Shown in pieces: positions 5,508 through 43,717 of a DNA stretch of 64,000 nucleotides. This DNA comes from an uncultured Gammaproteobacteria bacterium (GTDB taxonomy: Bacteria; Patescibacteriota; Patescibacteriia; UBA2591; UBA6264). The stretch covers positions 18,321 through 82,320 of the forward strand of contig CAZQVF010000002.1 of the NCBI GenBank assembly GCA_964596735.1, written 5' to 3'. Position 1 is the stretch's first letter. Each line of letters begins with the position of its first letter. Under the pieces are notes generated by a model that did not search any database, was not told where the DNA came from, and was given only the letters and a program-made list of their open reading frames with translations. A program made the position numbers and the translations under genes.

Positions 5508-6494
5508 ATGAACAGGGTATATCTTTTAAAAGGCTTTAAAGGCTTAGAGATTAGAGTTAAAAATATTTTAACTGATTTTTATTCAATTAAAGATAAAGTT
5601 CTTATTAAAATTCATTTTGGTGAACCAGGCAATAAACTTGCTTTTATGCCTAAGGATATTAAGCCGGTGATCATGGCTATGAATTCTTTGGGTTTAAAGT
5701 CTGTTTTTATTGACACAACTGTTGCTTATAATTCACCAAGAAATTCTATTAAGGGATATGAGAAAGTTGTCAGAAAAAGAGGCTATGACCAACTAGCCCC
5801 TTTTCTTATCTCTAAAAAGAGCCAGAAGATTAAGACAAAAGATTTTGTAGCTGGGGTTTGCCAAGAATTAATTAATGCAAAAAATGTTTTAGTTCTTTCT
5901 CATGTTAAAGGACATTCCTGTGCTGGTTTTGGTGGAGCAATAAAAAATTTGGGCATGGGCGGCGTAGACAAAGAAACTAAGGGAATCGAGCATGGTTTAA
6001 GTCGTCCTCGTTTTGTGGCTGAATGTCAAGGCTGTGGTATTTGTGCTGAATTTTGTCCAGCCAAGGCAATAAAAATGGTTGACAATAAAGCTAAAATTGA
6101 TTTAGATTCTTGTTGGGGTTGTTCAATTTGTCAATTACAATGTTCTTATAAATGTTTAGAACCAGAAAAAGCCTTGTTTGATGACCTATTAGCCCAAGGA
6201 GCCGCGGCGGTAATTAATAATTTACCCAAGAAAACTTTTTACATTAATTTTATTAAAAACATTACTAAACATTGTGATTGTGAGCCAAATCCGGGAGGGA
6301 TTATTGGGAAAGACATTGGCGTGCTTTTCTCAGATAATCCCGTTGCCATTGATAAGGCCAGTGTTGATTTGATTAATGAGTTGAATAAAAAAGACCTGTT
6401 TCAAGAAATAAATCACAAAGATCCACTTTTACATGTTAATTTTGCTGAAAAGTATACTAATAAAAAGTCAGATTATGAATTAATAACCATTTAA
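5508..6494 (+). CDS. DUF362-domain protein with an inserted 4Fe-4S ferredoxin-type dicluster domain
   Basis: Two CxxCxxC-type clusters (CQGCGICAEFCP, CWGCSICQLQC) embedded in DUF362-like flanks (VLIKIHFGE, HVKGHSCAGFGGAIKNLG). Confidence 0.65.
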   Translation: MNRVYLLKGFKGLEIRVKNILTDFYSIKDKVLIKIHFGEPGNKLAFMPKDIKPVIMAMNSLGLKSVFIDTTVAYNSPRNSIKGYEKVVRKRGYDQLAPFLISKKSQKIKTKDFVAGVCQELINAKNVLVLSHVKGHSCAGFGGAIKNLGMGGVDKETKGIEHGLSRPRFVAECQGCGICAEFCPAKAIKMVDNKAKIDLDSCWGCSICQLQCSYKCLEPEKALFDDLLAQGAAAVINNLPKKTFYINFIKNITKHCDCEPNPGGIIGKDIGVLFSDNPVAIDKASVDLINELNKKDLFQEINHKDPLLHVNFAEKYTNKKSDYELITI

Positions 6495-9252: not shown

Positions 9253-9290
9253 AAACAGGAATAAATGCTAATTATCCCTGTTTTTTATAT
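9253..9290 (+). terminator. Intrinsic terminator after ppdK (ACAGG..loop..CCTGT followed by a T-run)
   Basis: Hairpin plus TTTTTT read from the sequence. Confidence 0.45.
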
Positions 9291-9338
9291 TGCCTTATAT
9301 CACTGGTTTGATATAATATAGGCTGATATGATAATCTT

Positions 9339-9587
9339 ATGAAAAAGACTATTTATTTAGCTATGTTTGTTGTTTTGGGTGTTTTGATTGCTTTTTTGAT
9401 TTATGCGATGACCGAAGTCTGGTATATTGACTTATTAATCAAGGATTTTCAAAAATACAGCTTGGGCTTTTCTTGGGCTCACTGGTTTGTGATTAATCGT
9501 CTTTTGTCAGTTATTTTCTTTACTGGAGGAATTTTCGCCGGTTATTATCAAGGAGTATTTTGGTGGAAAAAGATATATGAGAAATAG
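9339..9587 (+). CDS. Small hypothetical membrane protein (2 TM)
   Basis: Two hydrophobic segments; placed upstream of the receiver/kinase cluster. Confidence 0.4.
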   Translation: MKKTIYLAMFVVLGVLIAFLIYAMTEVWYIDLLIKDFQKYSLGFSWAHWFVINRLLSVIFFTGGIFAGYYQGVFWWKKIYEK

Positions 9588-9639
9588 GCTTATTTATACT
9601 GTTATTTAGCCTGTTTTTTGCTATAATAACATAATAAAT

Positions 9640-10029
9640 ATGGAAAAAAAATCATTTAAAATTTTACTTATTGAAGATGACCAGTTTATTCGCCGTATTT
9701 GTAAAAACGGCCTAGAACGAAGTGGTTTTAATGTAATAACAGCTGCGGAGGGGAAAGAAGGGATGAAAAAAGCAAAAGAACAAAATCCAGATCTAATTCT
9801 CTCTGACTTAGTCATGCCCCATAGAAATGGTTTTGAAACAATGGAACAAATAAAAAAAGATAAACAATTAAAAGATATTCCAATAATTATTCTTTCTAAT
9901 TTGGGTCAAGAATCAGATATTCAAAAAATAAAAGAGTTGGGAGCCGTCGACTATTTAATTAAGTCTGATTTTAAAATAAAAGAAGTGGTAGAGAAAATAA
10001 AATCCCATTTGGCTAAATTAGAAAAATAA
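9640..10029 (+). CDS. Stand-alone response-regulator receiver domain protein (CheY-like), paralog of 12865-13245
   Basis: Receiver signature: acidic pair EDD, phospho-acceptor in LILSDLVMP, conserved T/S and K (IIILSNLG ... YLIKS); 129 aa, no output domain. Confidence 0.85.
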   Translation: MEKKSFKILLIEDDQFIRRICKNGLERSGFNVITAAEGKEGMKKAKEQNPDLILSDLVMPHRNGFETMEQIKKDKQLKDIPIIILSNLGQESDIQKIKELGAVDYLIKSDFKIKEVVEKIKSHLAKLEK

Positions 10030-10044
10030 AAGGAGGAATAAAAT

Positions 10045-12423
10045 ATGTTTTTAAAATATTTTAAAAAAATAAAACTTAACCTAACAACTAAATTTGTTGT
10101 TTTGTTCTTGGCTATTTCTCTGGTTCCCTTGATTATTGCTGTTTATATCAGTTATGACAGTTCGCGAAAAGTTTTAGAAGAAGAAGCCGCTTATCAGCTT
10201 TATCAAATTTCTGATAATAAAGTCAATCAAATTGATAAATATTTTTCAGAAGCAAAAAAAGATGTCACTGCTTTAGCGCGCATGCCTGGTGTTATCGGTT
10301 CTGTGGAAAAATTTAATCAGGCTTTTCAAGAACATCAAGTAAATTCTTTAGAATATCTTGCCATTGATAAAGAATTAAGACCTGCTTTATTATATTTTCA
10401 AGAGGCATCTAAGTATGATGATCTCTTTTTAATTTCCTCTGAAGGAAATTTAACTTTTTCTACTAGTCAAAAACATGCTTTAGGAACAAATTATCTTACT
10501 GATTTAAAGGCCAATTCTGATTTAACACCCATTCTTAAAAGTACCATTGCTTTATTAGAAACAAAAATATCAACCTTTAAGCTGATTAAGGGCGGTAAGA
10601 TTAGAGCTTATATCACATCTCCTGTGTCTAATGAAGGAAAATTTATTGGGGTGATCGGAGTTCAAGTTAATAATGAAGGAATCTATAATCTCACTGAAGA
10701 TTATGCTGGTTTAGGAAAAACAGGAGAAATTATTTTAGTCGCCAGATTAGAAGATCAAATAATTTTTATTGCTCCATCAAGATATGACCCAGAAGGAGCA
10801 TTTAAAACAAATGTTGAATTAGGGGCTCATCAAGGGATTGCCCTTCAAAAGGCAGTGCAAAGAGAAAAAAGTTGGGGAATAACCACTGATTACAAAGGAG
10901 AAAAGGTTTTAGCTACTTGGCGCTATCTACCTAATTATCAATGGGGCTTGGTAGTAAAAATGAATGCCGATGAAATATTAAAAACAGCTAATGAGCTAAA
11001 AGACCGGTTAGTCGTTATTGGGACAGTACTCTTAATAATGATTGTTTTGATTACGGTTGTGATGGCTCGTTCTGTTTCCGGGCCAATTAAAAAATTAACT
11101 AAAGTAGCAGCGACAATTTCTAAGGGTAATCTTTTGGCTCGGGCAAGAATAAACACAAAAGATGAAATTGAAGAATTGGCTAATTCTTTTAATCAAATGA
11201 CTGACAATCTTTTAAAAACCCAGAGTAGATTAGAAGACAAAAGTGAACAATTAGCTAGAAATCTTGGGCAGATAGAAAGACAAAACAAAGAGCTGGAAGA
11301 AGAAAAGAATAAGGTTGGTCAGGAAAAAGATAAATTAAATACTATTCTTTATGGGATTGGTGATGGTGTCTTTGTTGTTGATCCAGATTACAAGATTATG
11401 ATTTTTAATCAAGAAGCAGAAGTTATTTCTGGGGTTACATCTAAGGAGGCTGTTGGCAAGAGATATGATCAGATTCTTAATTTTATTTCTGAAAGAAACG
11501 GAAAATCAAATGGTAGATTTGTTCGAGAAGCAATAAGCAGTGGGGAGATTAAAGAAACCAGTTTTGATACTGTTTTGGTTAAAAAAGGCAAGAAAAATAT
11601 TCCGGTTTCCGGAAGTGCCGCTCCCTTAAAAGATTCTGATGGTAATGTAATAAGTTGTGTGGTTGTTTTTCGTGATGTGTCCAAAGAAAGGGAAATTGAT
11701 CGGGCCAAAACTGAATTTGTTTCCCTGGCTTCTCATCAATTAAGAACACCCCTTTCTACTGTCAGCTGGTATGCAGAAATGCTTTTAGATGAAGACGTGG
11801 GGAAAATCAACAAAGACCAAGAAAAATATTTACAAGCGCTTTATGATGCTAATCACCGCATGGTGGAATTAGTCAATGCTCTTTTAAATGTTTCTCGGAT
11901 TGAATTAGGAACTTTTGCTATTGACCCTGAGCCGATTAAATTTCTTGAAATTGCTGATAGTGTTATAAAAGAACAAACTCCACAAATTAAAGAAAAAGGA
12001 TTAAAAATTGAAAAAAAATATGCTGTTGATTTGCCCATTATTAATGCTGACCCTCGACTTTTAAGAATTATTTTACAAAATCTGATTTCCAATGCTGTTA
12101 AATATACTCCGGAAAAGGGAAGTATTGTTATTGAAATTAGTAAAAAGGATTTAGATATTTTAGTTAAAGTAAAGGATACTGGTTATGGTATTCCCAAGAC
12201 TCAACAATCAAAAATATTTAATAAGCTGTTCCGGGCTGATAATATTTTGGCTAAAGATTGTGATGGCACTGGTCTTGGCCTTTATATTGTCAAGGCTGTG
12301 GTTGAGCAGTCAGGCGGCAAAATCTGGTTTGAATCTGAAGAAAATAAAGGAACCACTTTCTTTACCACTATTCCTTTAATAGGAATGAAAAAGAAAAAAG
12401 GAGTCAAAGTTTTAGCTAGTTAA
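10045..12423 (+). CDS. Sensor histidine kinase with a large (~280 aa) extracytoplasmic sensor domain (Cache-like), HAMP, PAS, HisKA and HATPase_c
   Basis: TM1 about aa 14-36 and TM2 about aa 318-338. H-box FVSLASHQLRTPL, N-box ISNAVKYTP, G-boxes DTGYGIP and GTGLGLYIVK. Confidence 0.85.
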   Translation: MFLKYFKKIKLNLTTKFVVLFLAISLVPLIIAVYISYDSSRKVLEEEAAYQLYQISDNKVNQIDKYFSEAKKDVTALARMPGVIGSVEKFNQAFQEHQVNSLEYLAIDKELRPALLYFQEASKYDDLFLISSEGNLTFSTSQKHALGTNYLTDLKANSDLTPILKSTIALLETKISTFKLIKGGKIRAYITSPVSNEGKFIGVIGVQVNNEGIYNLTEDYAGLGKTGEIILVARLEDQIIFIAPSRYDPEGAFKTNVELGAHQGIALQKAVQREKSWGITTDYKGEKVLATWRYLPNYQWGLVVKMNADEILKTANELKDRLVVIGTVLLIMIVLITVVMARSVSGPIKKLTKVAATISKGNLLARARINTKDEIEELANSFNQMTDNLLKTQSRLEDKSEQLARNLGQIERQNKELEEEKNKVGQEKDKLNTILYGIGDGVFVVDPDYKIMIFNQEAEVISGVTSKEAVGKRYDQILNFISERNGKSNGRFVREAISSGEIKETSFDTVLVKKGKKNIPVSGSAAPLKDSDGNVISCVVVFRDVSKEREIDRAKTEFVSLASHQLRTPLSTVSWYAEMLLDEDVGKINKDQEKYLQALYDANHRMVELVNALLNVSRIELGTFAIDPEPIKFLEIADSVIKEQTPQIKEKGLKIEKKYAVDLPIINADPRLLRIILQNLISNAVKYTPEKGSIVIEISKKDLDILVKVKDTGYGIPKTQQSKIFNKLFRADNILAKDCDGTGLGLYIVKAVVEQSGGKIWFESEENKGTTFFTTIPLIGMKKKKGVKVLAS

Positions 12424-12460
12424 TTGTATAAATAATAATGTAATTTAATTATATAAACAT

Positions 12461-12850
12461 ATGTCAACACAAAACAAAAAAGTCCTTATTGTTGAGGACG
12501 AAAAAGCTATGCGACAAGTTATTTTTGACAAATTCGAACGTGAAGGTTTCCAAACCTTTCAAGGAAAAGACGGAGAAGAAGGCTTAAAGATTGCTTTAAA
12601 AGAGCATCCTGATATTATTCTTTTAGACATTATCATGCCTCGAGTTGATGGTTTAAGTATGCTTAAAAAATTAAGAAAAGATAAGTGGGGAAAAAATGCG
12701 CAGGTGCTTCTTCTTACTAATTTAAATGATGCTGAGTATGTGGCCACGGCTATGGAAAGTGGAGTTTTTGATTTTTTAGTTAAAAGTGATTGGAAGCTTG
12801 ATGATTTGGTTGTAAGGGTCAAAGAAAAACTAGGAATTGTTCAAAAATAA
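12461..12850 (+). CDS. Stand-alone response-regulator receiver domain protein
   Basis: VLIVEDE ... ILLDIIMP ... LLLTNL ... FLVKS receiver pattern; 129 aa. Confidence 0.85.
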   Translation: MSTQNKKVLIVEDEKAMRQVIFDKFEREGFQTFQGKDGEEGLKIALKEHPDIILLDIIMPRVDGLSMLKKLRKDKWGKNAQVLLLTNLNDAEYVATAMESGVFDFLVKSDWKLDDLVVRVKEKLGIVQK

Positions 12851-12864
12851 TATAATTATTAAAT

Positions 12865-13245
12865 ATGGCTGAAGAAAAAAAAGTTAAAATTGCTTTAGTT
12901 GAGGATGAAAGGTTTTTATTAGGGGCGATGAGGGATAAACTGCAAAGAGAGGGCTTTGATGTTTATACAGCGACTAATGGTGAAATTGGATTGGAGGTAA
13001 TTAAGAAAGAAAAACCGGCTTTGATTTTACTAGATTTAATTATGCCGATAAAAAGTGGTTTTGATGTTTTAGAAGAATTGCAAAAAGATAGTGAATTAAA
13101 AAATATTCCTGTCATTATTCTTACTAATTTGGGTCAAGAATCAGATATTCAAAAAGGTAAAGAATTGGGAGCAGCAGACTATTTAATCAAAGCTGATTTT
13201 AAAATGAAAGAGGTTATTGCCAAGGTAAGGGAACATCTTAAATAA
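12865..13245 (+). CDS. Stand-alone response-regulator receiver domain protein, paralog of 9640-10029
   Basis: Receiver pattern. The C-terminal ~35 aa are nearly identical to the first receiver (NLGQESDIQK.KELGA.DYLIK.DFK.KEV), with ~85% identity over ~100 nt at the DNA level. Confidence 0.85.
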   Translation: MAEEKKVKIALVEDERFLLGAMRDKLQREGFDVYTATNGEIGLEVIKKEKPALILLDLIMPIKSGFDVLEELQKDSELKNIPVIILTNLGQESDIQKGKELGAADYLIKADFKMKEVIAKVREHLK

Positions 13246-13264
13246 CATTTTAAACTTATTAAGC

Positions 13265-14974
13265 ATGGAAATTCCTTTGGAAAAATTAAAAGAACTTTTG
13301 GTTTCACCAGGTCATATTCCTGAGAAGGAATTTAATGATTCTGTTAAAAAAGCTAAGGAAGAAAACACTTCTTTGCAAAATTTTTTAGTAGAAAAAGGTT
13401 TAATCTCAGATAAAAATTTAGGAAAGACTATTGCTGAACATTTTGATTATCACTTTGTTGATCTTAAAAAAGAAGAGATTTCTGAAGAAATTCTAAGAAT
13501 AGTTCCTGAATTAGTCGCTCGCATGCAAGAAGTGATTGCTTTTGATAGAGGCAAAGATGGTTTTAAAATAGCCATGGCCAATCCAAATAACTATGAGATG
13601 GTTAAATGGTTGGAAAAAAAGACCGGAGAGAAGGTCAGGGTATATTACGCTACTTCTTTTGGAATTCAAGATTCTTTAAAGTTTTATCGCAAAAAAATAA
13701 CAGAAGAATTTGATGATATTATTAAAACTCAGGTTAAAGAAGCAAAAAGATTAAATGTGAAAGCAGAAGACATTCCCATTATTAAAATTGTTGATACTTT
13801 AGTTGAATATGCTTATGAAAACGGGACCTCAGATATTCACATTGAACCATTAGATGAAAAAACTCAGGTTAGGTTTAGGATTGACGGAGTTTTACACAAT
13901 GTTGTCAGTTTACCAAGAGATATTCATGGTTTAGTTGTTACTCGCATTAAGGTTTTAAGTCGACTCCGCACAGATGAACATTTTGCCGCTCAAGATGGAA
14001 AATTTCAGGTTGAATTAGAAGCTTTAACTGGCTTTAGAAGAAAACAAGATAAATTTGATATCAGAGTTTCCATTGTCCCAGTCACTGATGGAGAAAAAAT
14101 AGTGATGCGACTTTTGTCAGAAAAAGCCCGTCGCTTTACCTTAAAAGGATTGGGTTTTCGTCCTCAAGATCATAAAAAAATTAAAAACACTATTAAAAAA
14201 CCTTATGGTATGGTTTTATCTACTGGACCAACCGGTTGTGGTAAAACCACTAGTCTTTATGCTATTTTAAAGATTTTAAATAAACCAAGTGTAAATATTA
14301 CTACAATTGAAGATCCTGTTGAATATGACGTTGAAGGAATTAGTCAGATTCAAGTTAACACTAAAACTGGTTTGACTTTTGCCAAGGGTTTACGTTCAAT
14401 TGTTAGACAAGATCCAGATATTATTATGGTTGGAGAAATTCGTGACGAAGAAACAGCTGATATTGCTATTAATTCAGCCATGACTGGTCACTTAGTTCTC
14501 TCTACAATGCATGCTAATACAGCGGCAACTAATTTAGTTCGTTTAATAGATATGGGCGTAGAACCGTTCTTGGTTGCTTCTTCAATTAATGTTGTTTTTG
14601 GCCAAAGGTTGGTAAGAAAAATCTGTGAAAAATGCCGATATAGCTATGAGGTTAATCGCCAAGAATTAAAAAAACTTAATCTTTCCTCAAAATTAATTGA
14701 TAAAATCCTTGGTAAAAAACAAAAAATCAGAGTTTATAAAGGTGAGGGTTGTCGAGCCTGTAATGAAAGCGGATATACTGGTCGAATCGGGATTTTTGAA
14801 ATTTTAGAAATTAGTGACACCCTTAAACAAATGATTATGCGTCGAGCCAATGCTGATGAACTTGAAGGTCAAGCCATTAAAGAAGGGATGCACTCAATGA
14901 TGGAAGATGGAATTGAAAAAGTACTTACGGGAATTACCACTATTGATGAGGTATTAAGGGTGACCAGAGAATAG
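13265..14974 (+). CDS. pilB: Type IV pilus assembly ATPase PilB (GspE family)
   Basis: N-terminal T2SS-E N domain, Walker A STGPTGCGKTT, Asp box, His box, tetracysteine zinc motif (CEKC ... CRAC). Confidence 0.9.
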   Translation: MEIPLEKLKELLVSPGHIPEKEFNDSVKKAKEENTSLQNFLVEKGLISDKNLGKTIAEHFDYHFVDLKKEEISEEILRIVPELVARMQEVIAFDRGKDGFKIAMANPNNYEMVKWLEKKTGEKVRVYYATSFGIQDSLKFYRKKITEEFDDIIKTQVKEAKRLNVKAEDIPIIKIVDTLVEYAYENGTSDIHIEPLDEKTQVRFRIDGVLHNVVSLPRDIHGLVVTRIKVLSRLRTDEHFAAQDGKFQVELEALTGFRRKQDKFDIRVSIVPVTDGEKIVMRLLSEKARRFTLKGLGFRPQDHKKIKNTIKKPYGMVLSTGPTGCGKTTSLYAILKILNKPSVNITTIEDPVEYDVEGISQIQVNTKTGLTFAKGLRSIVRQDPDIIMVGEIRDEETADIAINSAMTGHLVLSTMHANTAATNLVRLIDMGVEPFLVASSINVVFGQRLVRKICEKCRYSYEVNRQELKKLNLSSKLIDKILGKKQKIRVYKGEGCRACNESGYTGRIGIFEILEISDTLKQMIMRRANADELEGQAIKEGMHSMMEDGIEKVLTGITTIDEVLRVTRE

Positions 14975-14999
14975 ATATTTTTTAATTTAATATATCTTT

Positions 15000-16046
15000 A
15001 TGTTAAAAAAAATAAGTACTATTGATAAAGTTTTTCTTGCTAATAATATTTCTGTTATGATTAAGGCCGGCTTGCCTTTAAGAGAAGCGGTAGCTACATT
15101 GCAGGAACAAACTAAATCTAAAGTATTTAAAAAAATTCTTGAGGATATTATTAAACATCTTGATAATGGAGAATCTTTAGCAGATAGTTTAGCTAGACAT
15201 CCTCGAGATTTTAATCAGCTTTTTATTAATATTATTAGAGTAGGGGAAGCGAGTGGAACTTTAGAGGAAAACTTAAAATACCTGGCCATTCAATTAGAAA
15301 AAAGTTATGATCTTCATCGAAAAGTAAAAGGGGCGATGATTTATCCCTTACTTGTTTTGACTAGTACTTTTGTTTTAGGATCAGCTTTGGCTGTCTTTAT
15401 TTTGCCTAAACTTTTACCTCTTTTTAAAAGTTTTGATGTACAACTGCCCTTGCCTACAAAAGTCTTAATCTGGGTGACAGAGGCAATTCAAAATCATGGA
15501 CTGTTAATCTTTGGTGGTTTAATTGGTCTTATTATTTTATTTACCTTCCTTTCCCGTTTAAAACCAGTTAAAAAAATTAATCATAAAATCCTTTTAAGAA
15601 CCCCTTTATTTGGTCGAATCTCCCGCAGTAATAACCTAGCTCAATTCTGTCGTACCTTAGGGATCTTGTTAAAAAGTGGCATTCCTGTAGTACAAGGACT
15701 GGAAATTACTTCTCAAACCTTAAAAAACATGAGTTATAAAAAAGCTTTAGTTGAAACCTCTGATAAAGTACAAAGAGGAAAACCCATTAGTGATCATTTA
15801 AAAAATGAGGGCTTTCTTTTCCCAGTCACTGTCTCTAAGATGATTCAGGTAGGAGAAAAAACTGGCAGTTTAGAAGAAACCTTGCTTCATTTAGCAGGAT
15901 TTTATGAAAAAGAAATTGATAATGTGACTAAGAATCTTTCCAACATCTTAGAACCTATCTTATTAATCGTTATCGGTTTGGTGGTTGGTTTTATTGCCAT
16001 TGCTATTATTCTGCCGATTTACAAATTAACCGGCGGATTTAGATAA
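15000..16046 (+). CDS. pilC: Type IV pilus inner-membrane platform protein PilC (GspF family)
   Basis: Two GspF repeats, each with the conserved helical segment followed by TM helices. Confidence 0.85.
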   Translation: MLKKISTIDKVFLANNISVMIKAGLPLREAVATLQEQTKSKVFKKILEDIIKHLDNGESLADSLARHPRDFNQLFINIIRVGEASGTLEENLKYLAIQLEKSYDLHRKVKGAMIYPLLVLTSTFVLGSALAVFILPKLLPLFKSFDVQLPLPTKVLIWVTEAIQNHGLLIFGGLIGLIILFTFLSRLKPVKKINHKILLRTPLFGRISRSNNLAQFCRTLGILLKSGIPVVQGLEITSQTLKNMSYKKALVETSDKVQRGKPISDHLKNEGFLFPVTVSKMIQVGEKTGSLEETLLHLAGFYEKEIDNVTKNLSNILEPILLIVIGLVVGFIAIAIILPIYKLTGGFR

Positions 16047-16053
16047 AATAAGT

Positions 16054-16500
16054 ATGTTTAAAAAAGGCTTTACTCTTGTTGAGATAATACTAGCTATTAC
16101 TATTATTATTTTCCTTGCTGGCTTGGTTGTGCCCACGGGTATACGTTTTTATCAAACCCAACAATTAGACACAGCGACTGATGGAATTATTCAGGCTTTA
16201 AGAAGAGCCCAATTAAAAGCCATGTCTCAAGGAGATAATAATTTTGGTGTTTATGTTGGCTCTGGTCAAACCGGTCAATATTTTTTATTTACAGGTAATT
16301 CTTATGAAAATAGAACTGACGAAGAAATTTTCGGGGCTAGCAATAATATTTCGTTCAGTGGTGTTTCAGAAGTATTATTTTCTAAAACACAAGGTAAGCC
16401 AACTATTACTGGAACAGGTGACGATATTGTTTTAACCCAAGGTACAGAAACAAAAACAATTAACATTAATGAAGCGGGTAGAATTAATTTTGAATTATAA
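16054..16500 (+). CDS. Prepilin-like protein (type IV pilin / pseudopilin), class III signal peptide
   Basis: N-terminus MFKKGFTLVEIILAITIII. The G|FTLVE cleavage and N-methylation motif is followed by a hydrophobic helix. Confidence 0.7.
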   Translation: MFKKGFTLVEIILAITIIIFLAGLVVPTGIRFYQTQQLDTATDGIIQALRRAQLKAMSQGDNNFGVYVGSGQTGQYFLFTGNSYENRTDEEIFGASNNISFSGVSEVLFSKTQGKPTITGTGDDIVLTQGTETKTININEAGRINFEL

Positions 16501-16503
16501 GTT

Positions 16504-19326
16504 ATGAAACATCAAAAAGCTCAAAGCTTAATTGAATTATTAATCGCCCTTGGCGTTTTTGTTTTGGTTGTCAGTTCGATTAATTTTTTAAGTCTTGATA
16601 CATATATAGCTGATCGAGCTGGTGGAGAAAGAACCCAAGCCACTTTTTTGGCTAAAGAGGGGATTGAAGCAAGTAAATCTATTAGCAACAACAGCTGGGG
16701 TGATTTAATCTTGGGCAATCATGGAATTAGTATCTCTGATGAACATTGGGTTTTTCAAGGAACGGCCGATGATGTTAGCGATCAATTAACTCAAGGAGAG
16801 CGGGTTATTGTTGTTGAACAAGACGAAGCTTGTAATCTAAATTGTAAAAAAATTACCTCTCAGGTGACCTGGGATTTAACAGACACTCGTCCCCAAACCG
16901 TAACCTTGGTCACTTATTTAACTAATTTGTTTAGTCTCAATTGGACCCAGACGCTTTTAGCAGACTTTGATTTAGGAAAGAGAAACAGTGTTCAGACCAC
17001 TGAGGTGGGTGATGGGGAGATAAAGTTATCCTTGATCGGCGACTGGAACAATGCCTCTGTTGTTGCCGACTTTGATACAGATGCTAATGGTGATGTCCGG
17101 GATATTTTTATTAATAATAATATTGCCTATGTTATTACCATGAATAATGGTGGTGGCGGTGAAGAAGAATTTTTTGTTTTAGATATTTCTGATATTAGTA
17201 ATGGAAATATTAATTTGTTAGGATCAACTGATTTGGGAACAGAATTAGGTAATGATGCTCGTAGTTTTCATGTTTCTGAAGATTATGCCTATATTGCCAG
17301 TGATGATAATAATGCCGAATTAATGATTGTTCGTTTAAGTGATTATACTGTAACTAATCAGTACAATGTTCCAGACAATCTTAATGGCCTTGATGTTTTT
17401 GTTGTTGATGATATTGCTTATTTAGTGACTAATGTAAATAATTCTGAAGAATTCTATGTCTTGGATGTTTCTAATCCTGAAGAAGAGATTACTCTGTTAA
17501 ATTCATTAGAAGTTGACGCCACTGTTAATAAAATTGATGTTGTGGGTAATTATGCTTATTTAGCCACTGAAGGTAATAATAAAGAATTATCAGTTGTTCG
17601 TTTAACAGATAATACTGAAGTAAATACTTTTGATATTACTGGTAATGGTGATATGACTTCTGTTCAGGTTATTGGCGATATCGCTTATATGGGGAGGGAA
17701 AGCAGTGGTGACTCAGAGTTTTATGCCTTGGATGTTTCTAACCCAGAAGGAGTAATTACTGAACTTGATTCAATTGATTTAGAAGGCGATGATGTTGAAA
17801 CAATTTCTATTTATAATGATTTGGCTTATTTGGGGACTGATAATGCAGACAAAGAAGTGGTCGTCATTGATTTAAATACTTTTATAGAAACAGCTTCTGT
17901 TGATTTAATCGGCTCAAATTATGCTTATGCGATTTGGTTTCAAGGCGCTCATATTTATGCCGGAACAACAAATAATGATTATGAAGTTCAAGTGATTCAA
18001 AGTGGCCAAGGCGGTTGGGAAGTCCCAGAAATGATTGGTAGCATTGATCTTCCCGGGAACGAGGATGCTAAAGATGTTTTTGTTTTAGGTGATTATGCTT
18101 ACATCGGGACTAAACCAGCTAGACACGGTGACAATTTTTTCATCATTGACATTTCAGACCCGGAAAATCCTGATCCAAGAGGTTCTCTTGATATAGGAAA
18201 GGATATTCATGGTGTTTATATCTCTGGCAACTATGCTTATCTGTCCTTGCATGATGATGATGAAGGATTAAGAATTGTTGATATTACCAATAAGGACAAT
18301 CCTATTAAACTTGATTATTTTAATGCCCCAGGAGACAAGTGTTTTAAAGATGTTTCTGTTTTAGATGATTATGCCTATATCGTAGGAAAAGAGGCAAGAA
18401 ACGATCCAGAATTTTTCATCATTGATGTTGAAGAGCCGGACGATTTAGAAGACGAGGCTGAAGGAAGTTTAGAGCTGGACACTGAGGCTTATGCCATATA
18501 TGTCTCAGGAGATTATGCTTATTTAGCCACTAGTGATAATGATAAAGAATTAATGGTGGTTGATATTTCAGATGAGGAAGAACCAGAGATGGTTGGTTCA
18601 TACAATGCTGATAGCGATGCTAATGCGAGGGATATTTTTATTGAAAATGACACTGCTTATTTAGTGACTAAAGAAAACTCTTCTGCAGGGATAAATCCTG
18701 AATTCTATATTTTAGATATTAGCACACCAACGGTTCCTAGTTTAATAGGTTCTTTAGACATAGATGACAACGTTGATACTCTCACTGTTTCAGGAGATTA
18801 TGCTTATTTGGGAACAGATGAGAATGATGCTGGGCTTCAAATAATCGATATTAGTGATTTAGCCAATCCTTTGCTTTATAGTACTTTTGATGTTGGTGAT
18901 GATGTTAAGGGTATTGATTTTGATGAGGGTCATGTTTATTTGGCCACTAAAAATGGTGATTTAGAGGCGCCAATTATTGGTCCAGGCGGATTACCAACTG
19001 ATTATTCTCAATGGGGCATTTTCACTTCTTCTTCTTATGATTCTGGGGAAACAAATACTTCATGGAATAATATCTTATGGTCAGAAAGTGGGACCGGTAC
19101 TTTAAAATTCCAGGTGCGCACTGCCGATACTGAAGAAAATCTTTCTTCGGCTACCTGGGTTGGATCAGACGGGACTAATTCAACTTATTATACTTTTTCT
19201 GAACAAAACATTATTATTGATCCTGGAGCCAGTGGTAAACAATGGGCTGAATATCGAGTATTTTTTACTGGTGACAGTACAGACAGTCCTATCTTAGAAA
19301 GTATAACTATTATTTATAGCAACTAA
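16504..19326 (+). CDS. Giant (940 aa) pilin-like protein: prepilin-type N-terminus followed by about 14 LVIVD-type beta-propeller repeats and a C-terminal beta-sandwich-like domain
   Basis: N-terminus MKHQKAQSLIELLIALGVFVLVV. Repeated ~40-55 aa units of the form V.GDYAYLAT..ND.EL.VVDISDP..P. Very acidic (D/E-rich) composition. Confidence 0.75.
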   Translation: MKHQKAQSLIELLIALGVFVLVVSSINFLSLDTYIADRAGGERTQATFLAKEGIEASKSISNNSWGDLILGNHGISISDEHWVFQGTADDVSDQLTQGERVIVVEQDEACNLNCKKITSQVTWDLTDTRPQTVTLVTYLTNLFSLNWTQTLLADFDLGKRNSVQTTEVGDGEIKLSLIGDWNNASVVADFDTDANGDVRDIFINNNIAYVITMNNGGGGEEEFFVLDISDISNGNINLLGSTDLGTELGNDARSFHVSEDYAYIASDDNNAELMIVRLSDYTVTNQYNVPDNLNGLDVFVVDDIAYLVTNVNNSEEFYVLDVSNPEEEITLLNSLEVDATVNKIDVVGNYAYLATEGNNKELSVVRLTDNTEVNTFDITGNGDMTSVQVIGDIAYMGRESSGDSEFYALDVSNPEGVITELDSIDLEGDDVETISIYNDLAYLGTDNADKEVVVIDLNTFIETASVDLIGSNYAYAIWFQGAHIYAGTTNNDYEVQVIQSGQGGWEVPEMIGSIDLPGNEDAKDVFVLGDYAYIGTKPARHGDNFFIIDISDPENPDPRGSLDIGKDIHGVYISGNYAYLSLHDDDEGLRIVDITNKDNPIKLDYFNAPGDKCFKDVSVLDDYAYIVGKEARNDPEFFIIDVEEPDDLEDEAEGSLELDTEAYAIYVSGDYAYLATSDNDKELMVVDISDEEEPEMVGSYNADSDANARDIFIENDTAYLVTKENSSAGINPEFYILDISTPTVPSLIGSLDIDDNVDTLTVSGDYAYLGTDENDAGLQIIDISDLANPLLYSTFDVGDDVKGIDFDEGHVYLATKNGDLEAPIIGPGGLPTDYSQWGIFTSSSYDSGETNTSWNNILWSESGTGTLKFQVRTADTEENLSSATWVGSDGTNSTYYTFSEQNIIIDPGASGKQWAEYRVFFTGDSTDSPILESITIIYSN

Positions 19327-19838
19327 TGATTTACAAAAAGAAAAAAAGTTTTACGTTAATTGAACTGCTTATTTATCTTGGCATAGTGGCCGGGATTTTA
19401 GTTGTGGCTGGTGCTTTTACCTGGAGTATTATTAAAGGAAGCGCAAAAGGCGCTTGTGTTCGAGAGGTGCAACAAAATGGACGTTTGGCCATGGAAGTAA
19501 TTACTCGAGAGATAAAGGCCGCTTCTGGAATTAATAGTCCTTTAGCTGGAGAATCAGCCGAGACCTTGTCTTTGATTATGTCTGACAGTGGTTTAAATCC
19601 AACTATATTTGAATTATCAAATGATCAGATTCTTTTAAGTCAGGGGGTGGATGGACCCTATACTTTAACTACTGATCAGGTTTTGGTTTCTAATCTTGAT
19701 TTTACTAATCTTTCCTACGCAGATACATCTGGAACAGTCAGAATAGAAATGACCTTAGATTATAATAATCTTGGTTCTCAAACCGCTTATGAGGCTTCGA
19801 TTGATTTAAGTACCACGGTTTCTTTAACTGAGGAATAA
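19326..19838 (+). CDS. Prepilin-like minor pilin/pseudopilin
   Basis: N-terminus KSFTLIELLIYLGIVAGILVV (class III signal peptide). Confidence 0.65.
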   Translation: MIYKKKKSFTLIELLIYLGIVAGILVVAGAFTWSIIKGSAKGACVREVQQNGRLAMEVITREIKAASGINSPLAGESAETLSLIMSDSGLNPTIFELSNDQILLSQGVDGPYTLTTDQVLVSNLDFTNLSYADTSGTVRIEMTLDYNNLGSQTAYEASIDLSTTVSLTEE

Positions 19839-19841
19839 AAC

Positions 19842-20237
19842 ATGAAACATCAACAAGCATATATTGCCTTAATTACCATTTTAATCATCTCTGCCGTAAC
19901 CTTATTAATTGCGGCTAGTGCTGGTCTTTTTGGTATTTCTGAAACAGACATGGGTCTAATCGAAGATCAATCTACTCAGTCTTATTATTTGGCTAATGCC
20001 TGTGCTGAATATGCCTTGGAAAGGTTAAAGAATAATGTAAATTATGCTGGTGACGAAACCTTAGATATTGATGATGGCAGTTGCTATATTTATTTACCAG
20101 AAGGAAGTGGCAATGAGGATAGAATAATTAAAGCAACCGGCACTCTTGCTAATCAGACTAGAAAGGTTAAAATTATAATAGAAGAGATTAATCCTTTAAT
20201 GGTCATTAGCTCTTGGCAAGAGGTTTCTGAATTTTAG
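19842..20237 (+). CDS. Putative minor pilin (PilX-like) with atypical N-terminal hydrophobic helix
   Basis: MKHQQAYIALITILIISAVTLLIAAS lacks the canonical G-F-T-L-I-E but sits within the pilin gene run. Confidence 0.4.
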   Translation: MKHQQAYIALITILIISAVTLLIAASAGLFGISETDMGLIEDQSTQSYYLANACAEYALERLKNNVNYAGDETLDIDDGSCYIYLPEGSGNEDRIIKATGTLANQTRKVKIIIEEINPLMVISSWQEVSEF

Positions 20238-20254
20238 AATGTTTAATTTAAAAT

Positions 20255-22012
20255 ATGGGTAAATTTTCAAAAACAGGTTTTGGCTTAGATATCTCTGATT
20301 TTTCAATCGAGGTTCTTGAGCTTAGTTCAAAAGTAAAAGTAAAAACTTTTTCTAGAATAACCCTAGAGCCAGGCATAATTGAAAATGGTCTTATTCTTGA
20401 TAAGAAAAAATTAACTAAAAAACTCAAAGAACTTGTTGCTAAAACAAAAATAAAAACAAGTCAGGTTGTTTTATCTTTACCAGAATCAAAGGTTTTTATT
20501 CATGTTTTTAAGGTTCCTAAGGGATTAAAAAAGACTAATTTAAAAGATGCCATTGCCTTTGAGGCGCCTAAAGTCATTCCTTTAAACCAGGAAGAAATAT
20601 ATTGGGACTGTCAGACAATTTCCTCTCCAGCAAAATCAGCTCAACAATCTGTTTTATACATCGCTGTTTTTAAAAATATTATTGATACCTATATTGAAGT
20701 TTTAACCTTGGCTGAGTTAAAACCAGTTGTTTTTGAGATAGAATCATTGGCTTTGGCTCGGGCTTTATTGTTAGAATTAAAACCAGTTAACAGTTTGATG
20801 ATTGTTGATTTAGGGGCTCGAACAACTAATATTAGTATTTTTGGTAAAAACAAACAATTAAGATGGTCTTCAACAGTTTCTGTTGCTGGCAAGCATTTTA
20901 CTCAGGCAATTGAGGAAAAATTAAAAAAATCTACAGAACAGGCAGAAAAATTAAAAAGAGATAAGGGCTTGTCAGATAAAAGCATTGTTAAGCTTATTTT
21001 AGAGAAAGAACTTAAACCGATTATTGAGGAAATAAAAAATATTCTTGATTTTTATAATGAACCAGTAGACGAAATTATTTTAAGCGGGGGTTCAGCTCAA
21101 ATACCAGAAATTGTCTCTTATCTTTCTACTAAACTTGAGAAAAAGGTTAGTCTGGGCAAATCAGTAATTACCAAACAATTAAAAGGAACTTCTATTCTTT
21201 ATAACACGGTTATTGGCTTAGCCCTTAAGTCGCGTCAGGGGGCCAAAAAAGGAGAAATTAATTTATTACCTCAAAAAATTAAAACCAAAAAATCTTTTAT
21301 TAATAAAGAAACGCAGGAAAGCAGGCTTTTTCAAATATTTGGTTATGTTTTTCCCTTAGCCTCTATAGTCTTTCTTGGTTGGGTGATTATTAATTACACA
21401 CCCCAACAACCACGTTTCTCAAATATTGCCCAGAAAATTTTTATAAACGAAGAGGTTGTTCCTGAAGAAAAAGAATCAGAACCAGTTAAAGCGATTAAAG
21501 AAGAAACAATAAGTGAAGAAATGGTGGTTGAACAAGAACCAGTTTCTGAAGAAGTAGTAGAAGAAATGGTGGTTGAACAAAAAAAAACCACCCAGATTAT
21601 TATTAATCAAGGGATTAGCCGTTTAAATGTAAGAAAAGGTCCTGGATCTGAATATGATATTGTGACCAAGGTTTATCCTGGAGAGAGTTATCCACTATTG
21701 CAAGAACAAGGGGAATGGTATAAAATAAGGGTAGATGAGGATACAGAGGGATGGCTTTCTGCCACTTATACAACTTTACAAGAAAAGACCACTTTATTAG
21801 AAGAGAAAATTGGTCAAATTACTGTCAAAGAAAGTGTTTTAAATGGATTAAATCTTCGTGATGGTCCAGGAACAAATTATACTATTATTACCAAGGTTTA
21901 TCCTGGAACAAATTATCTACTATTGCAAGAACAAGGAGAATGGTATAAAATAAGGGTAGATGAGGATACAGAGGGATGGCTTTCTGCCACTTATGTTTTA
22001 AAATTAGAATAA
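20255..22012 (+). CDS. pilM: Fusion protein: PilM (actin-like pilus assembly ATPase fold), a PilN-like TM segment, an acidic linker and two tandem SH3b (bacterial SH3) domains
   Basis: N-terminal ~330 aa has the PilM/FtsA-like fold and its position in the locus. There is a TM helix at about aa 360-380. Two C-terminal ~60-aa repeats (RLNVRKGPGSEYDIVTKVYPGESYPLLQEQGEWYKIRVDEDTEGWLSATY) are typical of SH3_3. Confidence 0.7.
   Translation: MGKFSKTGFGLDISDFSIEVLELSSKVKVKTFSRITLEPGIIENGLILDKKKLTKKLKELVAKTKIKTSQVVLSLPESKVFIHVFKVPKGLKKTNLKDAIAFEAPKVIPLNQEEIYWDCQTISSPAKSAQQSVLYIAVFKNIIDTYIEVLTLAELKPVVFEIESLALARALLLELKPVNSLMIVDLGARTTNISIFGKNKQLRWSSTVSVAGKHFTQAIEEKLKKSTEQAEKLKRDKGLSDKSIVKLILEKELKPIIEEIKNILDFYNEPVDEIILSGGSAQIPEIVSYLSTKLEKKVSLGKSVITKQLKGTSILYNTVIGLALKSRQGAKKGEINLLPQKIKTKKSFINKETQESRLFQIFGYVFPLASIVFLGWVIINYTPQQPRFSNIAQKIFINEEVVPEEKESEPVKAIKEETISEEMVVEQEPVSEEVVEEMVVEQKKTTQIIINQGISRLNVRKGPGSEYDIVTKVYPGESYPLLQEQGEWYKIRVDEDTEGWLSATYTTLQEKTTLLEEKIGQITVKESVLNGLNLRDGPGTNYTIITKVYPGTNYLLLQEQGEWYKIRVDEDTEGWLSATYVLKLE
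21665..21994 (+). repeat. Intragenic direct repeat: about 105 nt at 21665-21769 repeated at 21890-21994. The core 78 nt is 76/78 identical and encodes the duplicated SH3b domain
   Basis: Read directly: ACCAAGGTTTATCCTGGA...CTATTGCAAGAACAAGG(G/A)GAATGGTATAAAATAAGGGTAGATGAGGATACAGAGGGATGGCTTTCTGCCACTTAT occurs twice. Confidence 0.85.
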
Positions 22013-22037
22013 TTAATAATAATTAAGTTAAAACTTT

Positions 22038-22499
22038 ATGATTAGATCACGTAAAGGTTTTACTCTCATTGAAATTCTCATTGCCGTCGGGATTATTGCA
22101 ATTTTAGCCGCTATCGTTATTATTGCTATTAACCCAGCTCGTCAGTTTCAAAGAGCGAGAGATTCTCAACGATGGAGTGATGTTAACGCTATTCTTAATG
22201 GTGTTCACCAAAGAATGGTTGACAACAAAGGAAGTTTTGCTGAAGGCACCACCTGTGATGCCCTGCCAGCTACGGTCATGTCTATTACTAGTACAGCTGG
22301 AGCAAACAATGTTGATCTCTGTGATTGTTTGGTAACAACTTATTTAGCCGCTCTTCCTTTTGACCCTTCAACTTCTGGAGCAGGTTTTACTGATTGCAAT
22401 GGCTATACAACTGGTTATACTATTATGCAGGCCGCCACGGGTAGAATTACCGTTGCCGCTCCTGGAGATGAGTTAGATACGATTACAGTAACCCGGTAA
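22038..22499 (+). CDS. pilA: Type IV major pilin (PilA-like), with Cys residues for a C-terminal disulfide
   Basis: N-terminus MIRSRKGFTLIEILIAVGIIAILAAI. About 150 aa. Cys-containing C-terminal region and a strong terminator immediately downstream. Confidence 0.75.
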   Translation: MIRSRKGFTLIEILIAVGIIAILAAIVIIAINPARQFQRARDSQRWSDVNAILNGVHQRMVDNKGSFAEGTTCDALPATVMSITSTAGANNVDLCDCLVTTYLAALPFDPSTSGAGFTDCNGYTTGYTIMQAATGRITVAAPGDELDTITVTR

Positions 22500-22522
22500 T
22501 TTAAAATCAGAATTTACAATAA

Positions 22523-22562
22523 GAGCCTCCACCATGCCAAAAGGTGGCTGGAGGTTTTTTTT
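22523..22562 (+). terminator. Intrinsic terminator after pilA (GCCTCCACC..GGTGGCTGGAGG followed by T8)
   Basis: GC-rich hairpin followed by TTTTTTTT. Confidence 0.7.
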
Positions 22563-41976: not shown

Positions 41977-43245
41977 TTATTTTGTTTTCCAGTGGTCCAA
42001 GGCTTGTTTTAGTTCAATATGGTTATGAGAATAAAACTTTAAAGGAATTCCTTTGGTGGCCGCTTCTACGGCTTGAACAGCGGCTCTGGCTCCGGCCCCA
42101 CTTCCTTGAGGATGTCCGTGCAAACCACCGCCAAAATTAATAACTAGGTTTGTTCCTAAAATTTCAACTAATTTATAGGCTAAGCCGGGATGAAGTCCGC
42201 CTGAAGCAATGGGCAAAACAGGTTTAAGCTTGCCCCAGTTTTCTCTTAGTTTATTAAATCCTCGCCAGTCTTCTTTTAATAATTCATTTACTTGAACAAC
42301 TTCTTTTTCTTCTCCTTCCATTTTTCCCACCACTGTGCCTGTATGAAACTGATCAATACCAGCTAAGCGAGCTAAATTGGCTACGACTAAAAAGGAAATG
42401 CCATGTTTTTTATTTCTAGTAAAAGCAGAATGACCAGCTCTATGCCCGTGAATAATCAAGCCCAAGTCTTGGTTTCTCAAAGACTGGACTCCGGCCCAAC
42501 CAGTAGTAACAATATCAACCATAACACATCTGCCCCCTAATCTTTTAACTAATTTTGCTCTTTGCAGCATTAGCTCTGTTGGCGCGGTCACATTAAATAC
42601 ATAAATCTTTTTTTGTTTTGTTTCTTTTTCTACTTGTTTTTTAAGGGCTAAAACCTTTTTGACCCTGTCTTCAAATTTATTAAAACTCAGGTCGGTTAAA
42701 TTTTCATCATCTTTGATTAAATCAACTCCGTTTTTAAATATTTCTGCGGCTAATTTAGCGTTTTGAGTTGAAGTTAAGCCTATTTTGGGTTTTATAATAC
42801 AGCCAACCAAGGGCCTTCTTTTTATTCCGGTAATCCTTCTTATTCCATTAATCCCCCATTTTGGTCCTGGATATTGGTTAATATATTTTTCAGGAAATTC
42901 AATGTCTTGCAAACGTAAATTCTTAACTAATTTCATGCTAAAAATATTTCCCCCAATGCTAGAAAGAAGCTGAGGAATACTATTTGGTTCAAACAAGGCT
43001 AAGGGGTAAGCAATTTTAAAAATACCTGTTCTGGTGTTAACTGAAAAAACCTTTGCCGCTAATTTATTAAAGACTTTGTCTGATAAGGTTTTTACTTTTG
43101 TCCAGGTGCCAATTGAAGATTCTTCAGCTACTTTTTGGGCTAATTTATTTAAAGATAACTTAGATTCCCCATAATAAGTGACGATAATCTCTTCTTGGGG
43201 TTTTGGCTTATATTTTAGCCTTAAATAGGTTGATTTTTTTTTCAT
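41977..43245 (-). CDS. rbcL: Ribulose-1,5-bisphosphate carboxylase/oxygenase large subunit, form II/III-like (archaeal/CPR type)
   Basis: Carbamylated Lys region GVDLIKDDENL, GCIIKPKIGLT, IIHGHRAGHSAF, FGGGLHGHPQGSGAGARA. 422 aa. No small subunit gene adjacent. Confidence 0.9.
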   Translation of the reverse strand: MKKKSTYLRLKYKPKPQEEIIVTYYGESKLSLNKLAQKVAEESSIGTWTKVKTLSDKVFNKLAAKVFSVNTRTGIFKIAYPLALFEPNSIPQLLSSIGGNIFSMKLVKNLRLQDIEFPEKYINQYPGPKWGINGIRRITGIKRRPLVGCIIKPKIGLTSTQNAKLAAEIFKNGVDLIKDDENLTDLSFNKFEDRVKKVLALKKQVEKETKQKKIYVFNVTAPTELMLQRAKLVKRLGGRCVMVDIVTTGWAGVQSLRNQDLGLIIHGHRAGHSAFTRNKKHGISFLVVANLARLAGIDQFHTGTVVGKMEGEEKEVVQVNELLKEDWRGFNKLRENWGKLKPVLPIASGGLHPGLAYKLVEILGTNLVINFGGGLHGHPQGSGAGARAAVQAVEAATKGIPLKFYSHNHIELKQALDHWKTK

Positions 43246-43246
43246 A

Positions 43247-43717
43247 TTAACTTATTTTTTTAATTATTTTATCAATAATATTGCTAGTGGAAAATATTTT
43301 TTTATTTTTATCTGGAAACTCTTTTAATTCCCAATAGGGCCGATCATATTTTTTCGTCTTTCTTTTTTTAACAATAGCAATTATATCTGGCTTTAAATAC
43401 TCTAAAACAGACAAGGATTCTTCCATAGATCTGGATTTGTCTATGTAGACGTAATCTATATTTTTAATTCCATTAATCACTTCGGCTCTTTGCTTTGCAC
43501 TGTTAATTGGTTTTTTTTCACCTTTTTCTTGTTTCGTTAAAAAACTTGATTGAATAAAAATGATGACAATATCAGCAAATTTTTTAAATTGTCTGATTGA
43601 ATAAATGTGTCCGGGGTGAATAATGTCAAAAACTCCTTTTTTTATTAAAACTTTTTTATTTTGTTTTTGGGCCTGATCTATGATTTGTTTTAATTTCTTT
43701 TTTTTAGAAATAATCAT
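43247..43717 (-). CDS. Cytidylyltransferase-like nucleotidyltransferase (HxGH class) embedded between rbcL and the R15P isomerase
   Basis: GVFDIIHPGHIYSI motif; about 150 aa; second member of this fold in the window. Confidence 0.55.
   Translation of the reverse strand: MIISKKKKLKQIIDQAQKQNKKVLIKKGVFDIIHPGHIYSIRQFKKFADIVIIFIQSSFLTKQEKGEKKPINSAKQRAEVINGIKNIDYVYIDKSRSMEESLSVLEYLKPDIIAIVKKRKTKKYDRPYWELKEFPDKNKKIFSTSNIIDKIIKKIS

Follow-up and report, generated by a model that had tools for sequence, protein, structure and literature searches.

A dCache histidine kinase and three stand-alone receivers encoded beside pilB in a CPR bacterium: a candidate two-component system for type IV pilus control

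Introduction

Receiver (REC) proteins that bind the type IV pilus assembly ATPase PilB have been described in several systems. The classical histidine kinase ColS feeds the single-domain receiver EmvR, which binds PilB and lowers its ATPase activity (PMC11973254), the tandem-REC protein DrdR binds both PilB and PilT and modulates their ATPase (PMC13507683), and PATAN-REC regulators bind PilB1 (bioRxiv 10.1101/2021.06.11.447907). For PilG and PilH, no direct interaction with PilB is reported (PMC11656802). Here we analyse a 64,000-nucleotide stretch of an uncultured bacterium of the candidate phyla radiation (CPR, Patescibacteria; contig CAZQVF010000002.1, positions 18,321 to 82,320 of the forward strand), referred to below as the window, in which a sensor histidine kinase and three stand-alone receivers, REC1 to REC3, are encoded immediately upstream of pilB.

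Type IV pili are central to the biology of CPR bacteria, where they serve host attachment, twitching and probably DNA uptake. An experimental paper on Saccharibacteria names the regulation of pilus extension and retraction in the group as an open question (PMC11623550), and no description of a pilus-linked two-component system in CPR was found in the literature that we searched, a limited collection. The components of the locus are ordinary; what is new is their combination, a dCache kinase and three stand-alone receivers in a pilus operon, with receivers of a CPR-specific clade that recurs beside pilB. We propose, giving it about an even chance, that the genes encode a branched two-component system built into a CPR type IV pilus operon, in which phosphorylated receivers act on the pilus motor. 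Here, we will elaborate on the conservation of the locus, the kinase and its receivers, the probable transcription unit, and the alternatives to this proposal.

The regulatory genes and their linkage to pilus genes

The window is AT-rich (~33% GC), and for all of its genes the nearest relatives come from Patescibacteria/CPR metagenome-assembled genomes. Every gene from 9.3 to 22.6 kb lies on the + strand. The regulatory genes and the two pilus genes that follow them are:

9640..10029, + strand: REC1, stand-alone receiver, 129 aa, matching PF00072 only (94.7 bits), with orthologues in the related loci L081 and L083
10045..12423, + strand: sensor histidine kinase, 792 aa, with a first transmembrane (TM) helix, dCache_1, a second TM helix, HAMP, PAS, HisKA and HATPase_c
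12461..12850, + strand: REC2, stand-alone receiver, 129 aa, matching PF00072 only (85.1 bits)
12865..13245, + strand: REC3, stand-alone receiver, 126 aa, immediately 5' of pilB, matching PF00072 only (80.2 bits)
13265..14974, + strand: pilB, type IV pilus assembly ATPase, with MshEN/T2SSE_N plus T2SSE (PF00437, 420.7 bits)
15000..16046, + strand: pilC, platform protein, with two T2SSF domains

A first-pass annotation, made from the letters of the window, had claimed that three REC-only genes start at 9640, 12461 and 12865 and that the regulators are co-directional and closely packed with pilB-pilC. Both claims hold: each receiver matches PF00072 alone (80-95 bits), over residues 8-121 and with no further domain in any of them, and the gaps from REC1 to pilC are 15, 37, 14, 19 and 25 nt, all on the + strand. 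The annotation's label "orphan" for the receivers is a misnomer, because they flank a kinase.

The order PPDK, an 82-aa open reading frame (ORF), REC1, kinase, REC2, REC3, pilB, pilC is kept in L081 and in L083/L084, where the kinases are 87% and 65% identical to that of the window. In L085/L086 (kinase 55% identical), the kinase-REC2 pair stands immediately before a pilM-SH3 gene, a pilin gene and truB. These loci lack the segment from pilB to the pseudopilins, and the regulators still abut pilus genes. Of the three receivers, REC2 is thus the one that still adjoins the kinase gene in the most remote of the syntenic relatives.

The linkage extends beyond the syntenic loci. A REC-only gene lies immediately 5' of pilB in the species-representative genomes L001, L005, L007, L008, L009 and L011, and this arrangement is present at six of the ten informative loci among the 11 closest PilB matches, compared with about one in 22 of the next CPR matches (p = 0.0014). 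A metagenome scan seeded with a REC1/3 profile (A1) retrieved 80 loci, 51 of which have at least 1.5 kb of downstream sequence and are counted as informative. Directly 3' of the receiver, pilB is found at 14 of these 51 loci, and PilB-, PilC- or PilM-like genes occur within 5 kb at 23 of the 51, against assumed random expectations of ~0.2% and ~3%, respectively. A kinase adjoins the receiver at 38 of 45 metagenome loci.

The arrangement itself varies. The alternative orders include kinase-REC-pilB, pilB-kinase-REC-pilC (L094, L158), pilB-REC-pilT-like-pilC (L054, L164) and kinase-REC-pilM (L085), and the existence of several distinct receiver-pilus arrangements argues for selection on the linkage. 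REC-REC fusions of ~260-300 aa occur in L098, L137, L147, L158, L162 and L166, the fusion of L158 lying between pilB and pilC. They join receivers of the 'SNSGQP' and 'SNLGQxxD' types, which are separate neighbouring genes in other CPR loci. The association of the regulators with pilB that had first been noticed in the window is therefore borne out by gene order in its relatives and by strong enrichment of such receivers beside pilB across CPR.

The kinase and its sensor domain

The architecture that had been read from the kinase sequence (TM-sensor-TM-HAMP-PAS-HisKA-HATPase) is confirmed by Pfam and by hydrophobicity. TM helices are placed at residues ~17-35 and ~322-340, and the Pfam domains are dCache_1 (43-304), HAMP (339-390), PAS (431-549), HisKA (554-621; 59.3 bits) and HATPase_c (669-778; 95.5 bits). 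The catalytic boxes are intact, with the phosphoacceptor-type H-box SHQLRTP (His564), the N-box at 679, and the G1 and G2 boxes at 711 and 741. The top NCBIfam matches of the kinase core are WalK, PnpS and PhoR, and its orthologues are 55-90% identical.

A search for dCache or sCache domains in the extracytoplasmic region finds dCache_1 (PF02743) at 51.8 bits, above its gathering score of 45. An AlphaFold model of sensor residues 38-318 has a pLDDT of 91.2 and a pTM of 0.85, and in Foldseek it matches the ligand-binding domains of DctB, PctA, Mlp24, Tlp3, McpH and TlpQ with a probability of 1.00; PscC is also matched. The closest solved relatives of the sensor bind dicarboxylates, amino acids, purines or amines. 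The confident dCache fold, together with matched domains that all bind small molecules, points to a small-molecule ligand rather than to surface sensing, and the first-pass description of a "surface-sensing kinase" is not retained.

No homologue of the dCache sensor was found in the more distant pilB-linked loci, so conservation of the sensor cannot be used as evidence. The absence of this sensor from these distant pilB-linked kinases indicates that the input is lineage-specific, while the linkage of receivers to pilus genes is wider.

The receivers form a CPR-specific clade

REC1, REC2 and REC3 all have intact active-site residues: at the positions equivalent to CheY 12, 13, 57, 87, 106 and 109 they carry the acidic pair E-D, the phospho-acceptor D, an S or T, an aromatic switch residue (Y or F) and K. 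The features of kinase and receivers are those of a classical HisKA-type two-component system, and phosphotransfer between them is predicted from their adjacency and conserved synteny. The top NCBIfam ranks of the receivers are taken by OmpR/PhoB-family receiver domains. Among solved structures, REC3 is nearest to Thermotoga maritima RR468 and OmpR-family receivers, and REC2 to DrrD, PleD and Spo0F.

For comparison, the sequences of seven reference receivers (PilG, PilH, two CheY, Spo0F, DivK and RR468) were verified by exact database look-up. Identities of the window receivers to the references are 22-39%, and 24-34% to PilG and PilH. REC1 reaches 63 bits against both PilG and PilH and 66 against RR468; REC3 scores 67.5 with PilH, 73 with RR468 and 30 with Escherichia coli CheY; and the best verified reference for REC2 is Spo0F, at 68 bits. 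In a neighbour-joining tree, the CPR receivers form a clade of their own (bootstrap 100), and no affinity to PilG, PilH or CheY has support. The earlier description of the receivers as PilG/PilH-type hence fails as an assignment to a family and stands as a functional analogy, that of output-less receivers controlling pili. Within the CPR clade, the sister group of REC1 is REC3 (97% bootstrap), and each of the two is joined with its orthologues (95% and 100%).

All members of the clade (REC1-3; L001, L005, L007-L009 and L011; L081-L085) carry Asn at the T+1 position, and their K+1 position is occupied by Ser, Ala, Thr or Gly; the seven references all have a Lys-Pro pair there. Replacement of this nearly universal Lys-Pro may alter the lifetime of the phosphorylated state or the beta5-alpha5 switch.

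The ORFs scanned for other signalling domains extend to ~55.8 kb (~56 of the 64 kb) and, outside the locus, comprise those of at least 100 aa. No CheA, CheW, methyl-accepting chemotaxis protein (MCP) or Hpt was found among them or in the syntenic loci, in keeping with the earlier view that the receivers are wired to a classical kinase rather than to a Che-like system. The kinase itself contains no REC or Hpt domain, and no hybrid kinase was found in the scanned ORFs. The term "phosphorelay", used in the first-pass annotation, is accordingly dropped: the absence of an Hpt protein from the scanned ORFs indicates a branched system of one kinase and three receivers.

A search of the window for more kinases and receivers detected no second kinase and a single other receiver-like gene (46621-47742, - strand). 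Its 373-aa product has a degenerate REC-like N-terminus, with a PF00072 score of 26 bits (gathering score 30.2) and a CovR/VicR-like receiver as its best solved match (26 bits); the C-terminal ~280 aa have no Pfam or PDB sequence match.

A segment shared by REC1 and REC3

REC1 and REC3 share a C-terminal segment in which ~30 of 36 residues are identical. The patch, with coordinates re-derived from a codon alignment, covers:

9854..9983, + strand: REC1 copy of the apparently homogenised beta4-alpha4-beta5-alpha5 segment, 130 nt, 85% identical to the REC3 copy
13082..13211, + strand: REC3 copy of the segment, partner of 9854-9983

A high-identity C-terminal segment with 85% DNA identity had been noted before; the earlier DNA coordinates (9893-9995 against 13117-13219) miss the register by 4 nt and yield an alignment of 33% identity. 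The two proteins are 53% identical overall and 41% outside the patch, the latter value ruling out a similarity that runs through the whole genes. Identical synonymous codons are used at 28 of 34 sites in the patch and at 14 of 32 outside it (Fisher p = 0.002), an excess that makes the patch more than a chance likeness.

Inside the patch, window REC1 is 80-84% identical in nucleotide sequence to the REC3 of any genome and 73% identical to its own L083 orthologue; outside the patch the relation is reversed, with 52-56% to the REC3s and 68% to the L083 orthologue. Synonymous codon identity in the patch is 82% and 74% within genomes, compared with 50-60% for deep cross-genome paralogue pairs (p = 0.006). 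The patch looks like the product of partial gene conversion over a protein-level constraint on a shared surface.

The high similarity of the segments had been taken as a sign of recent duplication. For each of REC1, REC2 and REC3, however, a separate orthologue is present in both L081 (kinase 87%) and L083 (kinase 65%). These orthologous groups, which the tree also recovers, were already distinct when the lineages with 65% identical kinases parted, which makes the duplication an old one.

A probable transcription unit

The regulators and the pilus genes probably form one co-transcribed unit of ~13 kb (~9.29-22.56 kb), bounded by predicted terminators. Its boundaries and remaining genes are:

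9256..9286, + strand: intrinsic-terminator-like hairpin with a T6 tail, 3' of the PPDK gene, upstream boundary (dG -10.8 kcal/mol, z = -4.7 against shuffles)
9290..9317, + strand: best promoter-like site, TTGCCT-16-TATAAT with an extended -10 TG (10/12 matches; consensus match only)
9339..9587, + strand: first gene of the unit, an 82-aa membrane ORF containing two hydrophobic segments
16054..20237, + strand: four pilin-like/pseudopilin genes, with N_methyl motifs and LVIVD repeats
20255..22012, + strand: pilM, fused via one TM segment (361-379) to two SH3 domains (PF11104, 140.6 bits; SH3_3 twice)
22038..22499, + strand: last gene of the unit, encoding a pilin that is probably the major one (N_methyl, 34.2 bits; N-terminus KGFTLIE)
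22521..22559, + strand: downstream boundary, a strong hairpin resembling an intrinsic terminator and followed by a T8 tail (dG -19.9 kcal/mol, z = -4.2; 0/200 shuffles as stable)

The intergenic gaps from REC1 to the last pilin gene range from -1 to 37 nt, and none of them holds a + strand terminator-like hairpin. Strong terminators were looked for in particular between the regulators and pilB and were not found; the kinase/REC2 and REC3/pilB gaps fold no better than shuffled sequence. Both boundary hairpins were found by direct folding and were overlooked by an automatic terminator scan because their stems are bulged. The promoter-like site at 9290-9317 directly follows the hairpin behind the PPDK gene, and a second TGCTATAAT extended -10 element is located at ~9619-9627, immediately before REC1. 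A hairpin between the 82-aa ORF and REC1 was considered and rejected, being weak (z = -0.9) and no better than shuffles.

The 82-aa ORF has no Pfam match, and its orthologues stand at the equivalent position in L081 and L083/L084 (108-113 bits). Situated between the PPDK terminator/promoter region and REC1, it may encode an accessory membrane partner of the kinase. Among the genes of the unit (9620-22040), a strong Shine-Dalgarno sequence (AAAGGAGG) is present only at the kinase gene; most of the others have an AT-rich upstream region with no recognisable Shine-Dalgarno sequence.

Pilus genes and other genes of the window

The locus encodes a type IVa pilus set: PilB, PilC, PilM_2 (140.6 bits) and four proteins with N_methyl motifs. 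PilB scores 545 bits with TIGR02538, under the equivalog cut-off of 675. Its N-terminal MshEN-type region (13265-13700; PF05157, 36.5 bits) reads SLQNFLVEKGLISDKNLGKTIAEH. Compared with what we take to be the cyclic di-GMP-binding motif, the leading Arg and Gly are substituted, and control of PilB by cyclic di-GMP may therefore be absent. The PilM-TM-SH3-SH3 architecture recurs in L085/L086. One of the pilin-like proteins (16504-19326, + strand) has 940 aa and combines an N-terminal methylation-type motif with LVIVD beta-propeller repeats; it may be a minor pilin of giant size or an adhesin at the pilus tip.

A phmmer search with PilB detected no paralogue in the 64-kb window that could represent PilT, and the scanned window ORFs contain no Peptidase_A24 match that could represent PilD; both genes may lie elsewhere in the genome.

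Away from the pilus locus, genes for a RuBisCO large-subunit homologue (41977-43245, - strand) and an IF-2B-family protein (43714-44673, - strand) adjoin. The latter may be a ribose-1,5-bisphosphate isomerase, and the pair resembles the nucleotide-salvage pathway of CPR bacteria and archaea.

Proposed mechanism and alternatives

In the proposed branched system, ligand binding to the dCache domain would set the balance between the kinase and phosphatase activities of the sensor protein. The kinase would phosphorylate REC2, the core partner in all syntenic relatives, as well as the REC1/REC3 pair, and the phosphorylated receivers would gate pilus assembly by contact with the motor (PilB, possibly PilC or PilM). 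Protein-protein contact is proposed because the receivers have neither a DNA-binding nor an enzymatic output. The homogenised alpha4-beta5-alpha5 face common to REC1 and REC3 makes it probable that both address one partner or that they bind each other, with one of them possibly serving as a competitor or phosphate sink. In view of the experimental precedents EmvR, DrdR and PATAN-REC, action of the receivers on the motor is the most economical reading.

Several points weigh against this proposal. The target of the receivers is wholly inferred, and the view of the unit as an operon comes from consensus scans and folding only; in L083, gaps of ~150 nt surround pilB and hold a promoter-like site. 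The visible DNA amounts to 64 kb of the genome, the rest of which could encode an Hpt protein or a regulator with an output domain. At 28 of the 51 informative REC1/3-type loci, the surrounding 5 kb hold no pilus gene. A second context, in which kinase-REC-REC is followed by mutM (fpg), holA and divergent rpsT, occurs at L097, L104, L119-L121, L128, L129, L134 and L151, with no pilus genes nearby. In L153, the gene immediately 5' of pilB (5572-6384, + strand) encodes a 270-aa protein in which a helical N-terminus resembling an Hpt motif (IHSIKSQSLVMGYTELGNYCKEIE), a call made by eye from the sequence, is joined to a REC domain.

This L153 protein, which belongs to another lineage, speaks for a true multi-step phosphorelay, in which the receivers would be Spo0F-like intermediates that pass phosphate to an Hpt- or Spo0B-like protein and on to a distal output regulator controlling transcription of pilus or other genes. 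Spo0F is the best verified reference for REC2 and ranks high among its solved-structure matches, and the visible 64 kb leave room for further components. We nevertheless consider such a relay unlikely: Hpt, hybrid kinase and output-bearing regulator were not found in the scanned window ORFs or the syntenic loci, the one other REC-like protein (46621-47742) is under the Pfam threshold, and REC1 and REC3 are no closer to Spo0F than to RR468 or PilH. A further alternative is transcriptional autoregulation, in which receivers that lack a DNA-binding domain would set the expression of the pilus operon through RNA polymerase, through a sigma factor or through a transcription factor encoded elsewhere, as a functional equivalent of the PilS-PilR control of pilin expression. 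The regulators stand at the 5' end of the operon, just after the best promoter-like sites, and the resemblance of the kinase core to WalK/PhoR/PnpS and of the receivers to the OmpR/PhoB family places them in a lineage that normally controls transcription. The three receivers, however, have no DNA-binding or sigma-54 activator domain, the unit contains no candidate partner gene, and the known pilus-linked single-domain regulators target motor proteins or polarity, not RNA polymerase (PMC11973254, PMC13507683, PMC11656802), which makes this alternative distinctly improbable.

The module may also be unrelated to pili, its position reflecting inherited gene order in small, dense CPR genomes and its receivers regulating something else, for instance through DivK-like allosteric feedback on kinases or as CpdR-like protease adaptors. 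The 28 loci without a nearby pilus gene, the conserved mutM-holA-rpsT context and the variation of the kinase sensor domain between lineages are as expected in that case. Adjacency to pilB, however, exceeds the assumed random expectation more than 100-fold, and the linkage to pilus genes recurs in at least four gene orders, including insertions that part pilB from pilC or from a pilT-like gene, which simple inheritance fails to explain; in the window, moreover, no terminator separates the regulators from pilB. A lack of any relation to pili is thus, in our view, not probable.

Returning to action on the motor, a broader version of the proposal can be put forward, although we consider it less likely than not. 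In it, the CPR-specific receivers (Asn at T+1, no Lys-Pro) would be dedicated, phosphorylation-dependent clutches on the pilus motor, driven by kinases with swappable sensors, and the dCache domain may read a host or environmental metabolite. If so, the deployment of pili by these episymbionts for host attachment or DNA uptake would be chemically gated, with no transcription factor or second messenger. The locus and the recurrent receiver-pilB linkage supply concrete candidate pilus regulators and a mechanism that can be tested through receiver-PilB binding and dCache ligand input. A host-derived ligand of the dCache domain would provide a handle on host recognition by episymbionts.

Comparison with known systems

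The HK853-RR468 pair of T. maritima also consists of a HisKA kinase and a stand-alone receiver, and RR468 matches REC3 at 73 bits and 39% identity. RR468 differs in having the canonical Lys-Pro and Ala at T+1, and the sensor of HK853 differs from that of the window kinase. We know of no link between RR468 and pili.

PilS-PilR is likewise a two-component system encoded beside pilB, pilT and pilC. PilR is of the NtrC type, with sigma-54 activator and DNA-binding domains, whereas the window receivers are output-less. PilS is a six-TM sensor, whereas the window kinase is of the dCache-PAS type and is encoded upstream of pilB; in the Myxococcota and delta-type loci retrieved, the kinase lies 3' of pilC.

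PilG and PilH of the Pil-Chp system of Pseudomonas aeruginosa also represent at least two single-domain receivers, possibly antagonistic, that control type IV pili. REC1 and REC3 match PilH at 63-67 bits and 34% identity, a range similar to that with any other receiver. The phosphate donor of PilG and PilH is the CheA-like ChpA, which acts with the CheW-like PilI and the MCP PilJ, and no such proteins occur among the scanned window ORFs. They also carry the Lys-Pro pair, unlike the CPR receivers with their Asn at T+1.

DrdR of Xanthomonas campestris is likewise output-less and REC-only (PMC13507683), and its tandem organisation has a counterpart in the REC-REC fusions of CPR relatives. It is encoded by an orphan gene and its N-terminal REC is a pseudo-receiver, whereas the window receivers are separate genes, all with a complete active site.

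The closest mechanistic model for our proposal is the "one-to-two" system ColS-ColR/EmvR of Xanthomonas oryzae pv. oryzicola, which likewise combines a transmembrane HisKA kinase with a stand-alone receiver (PMC11973254). There, the gene for EmvR is an orphan without linkage, and ColS has a second, DNA-binding partner, ColR; here, three receivers and no DNA-binding partner are encoded inside the pilus operon of a CPR organism, with a kinase that carries dCache and PAS domains. The likeness is one of mechanism, and action of the window receivers on the motor would extend the recent Xanthomonas findings of PilB-directed, output-less receivers to a genome-reduced lineage very far from Xanthomonas.

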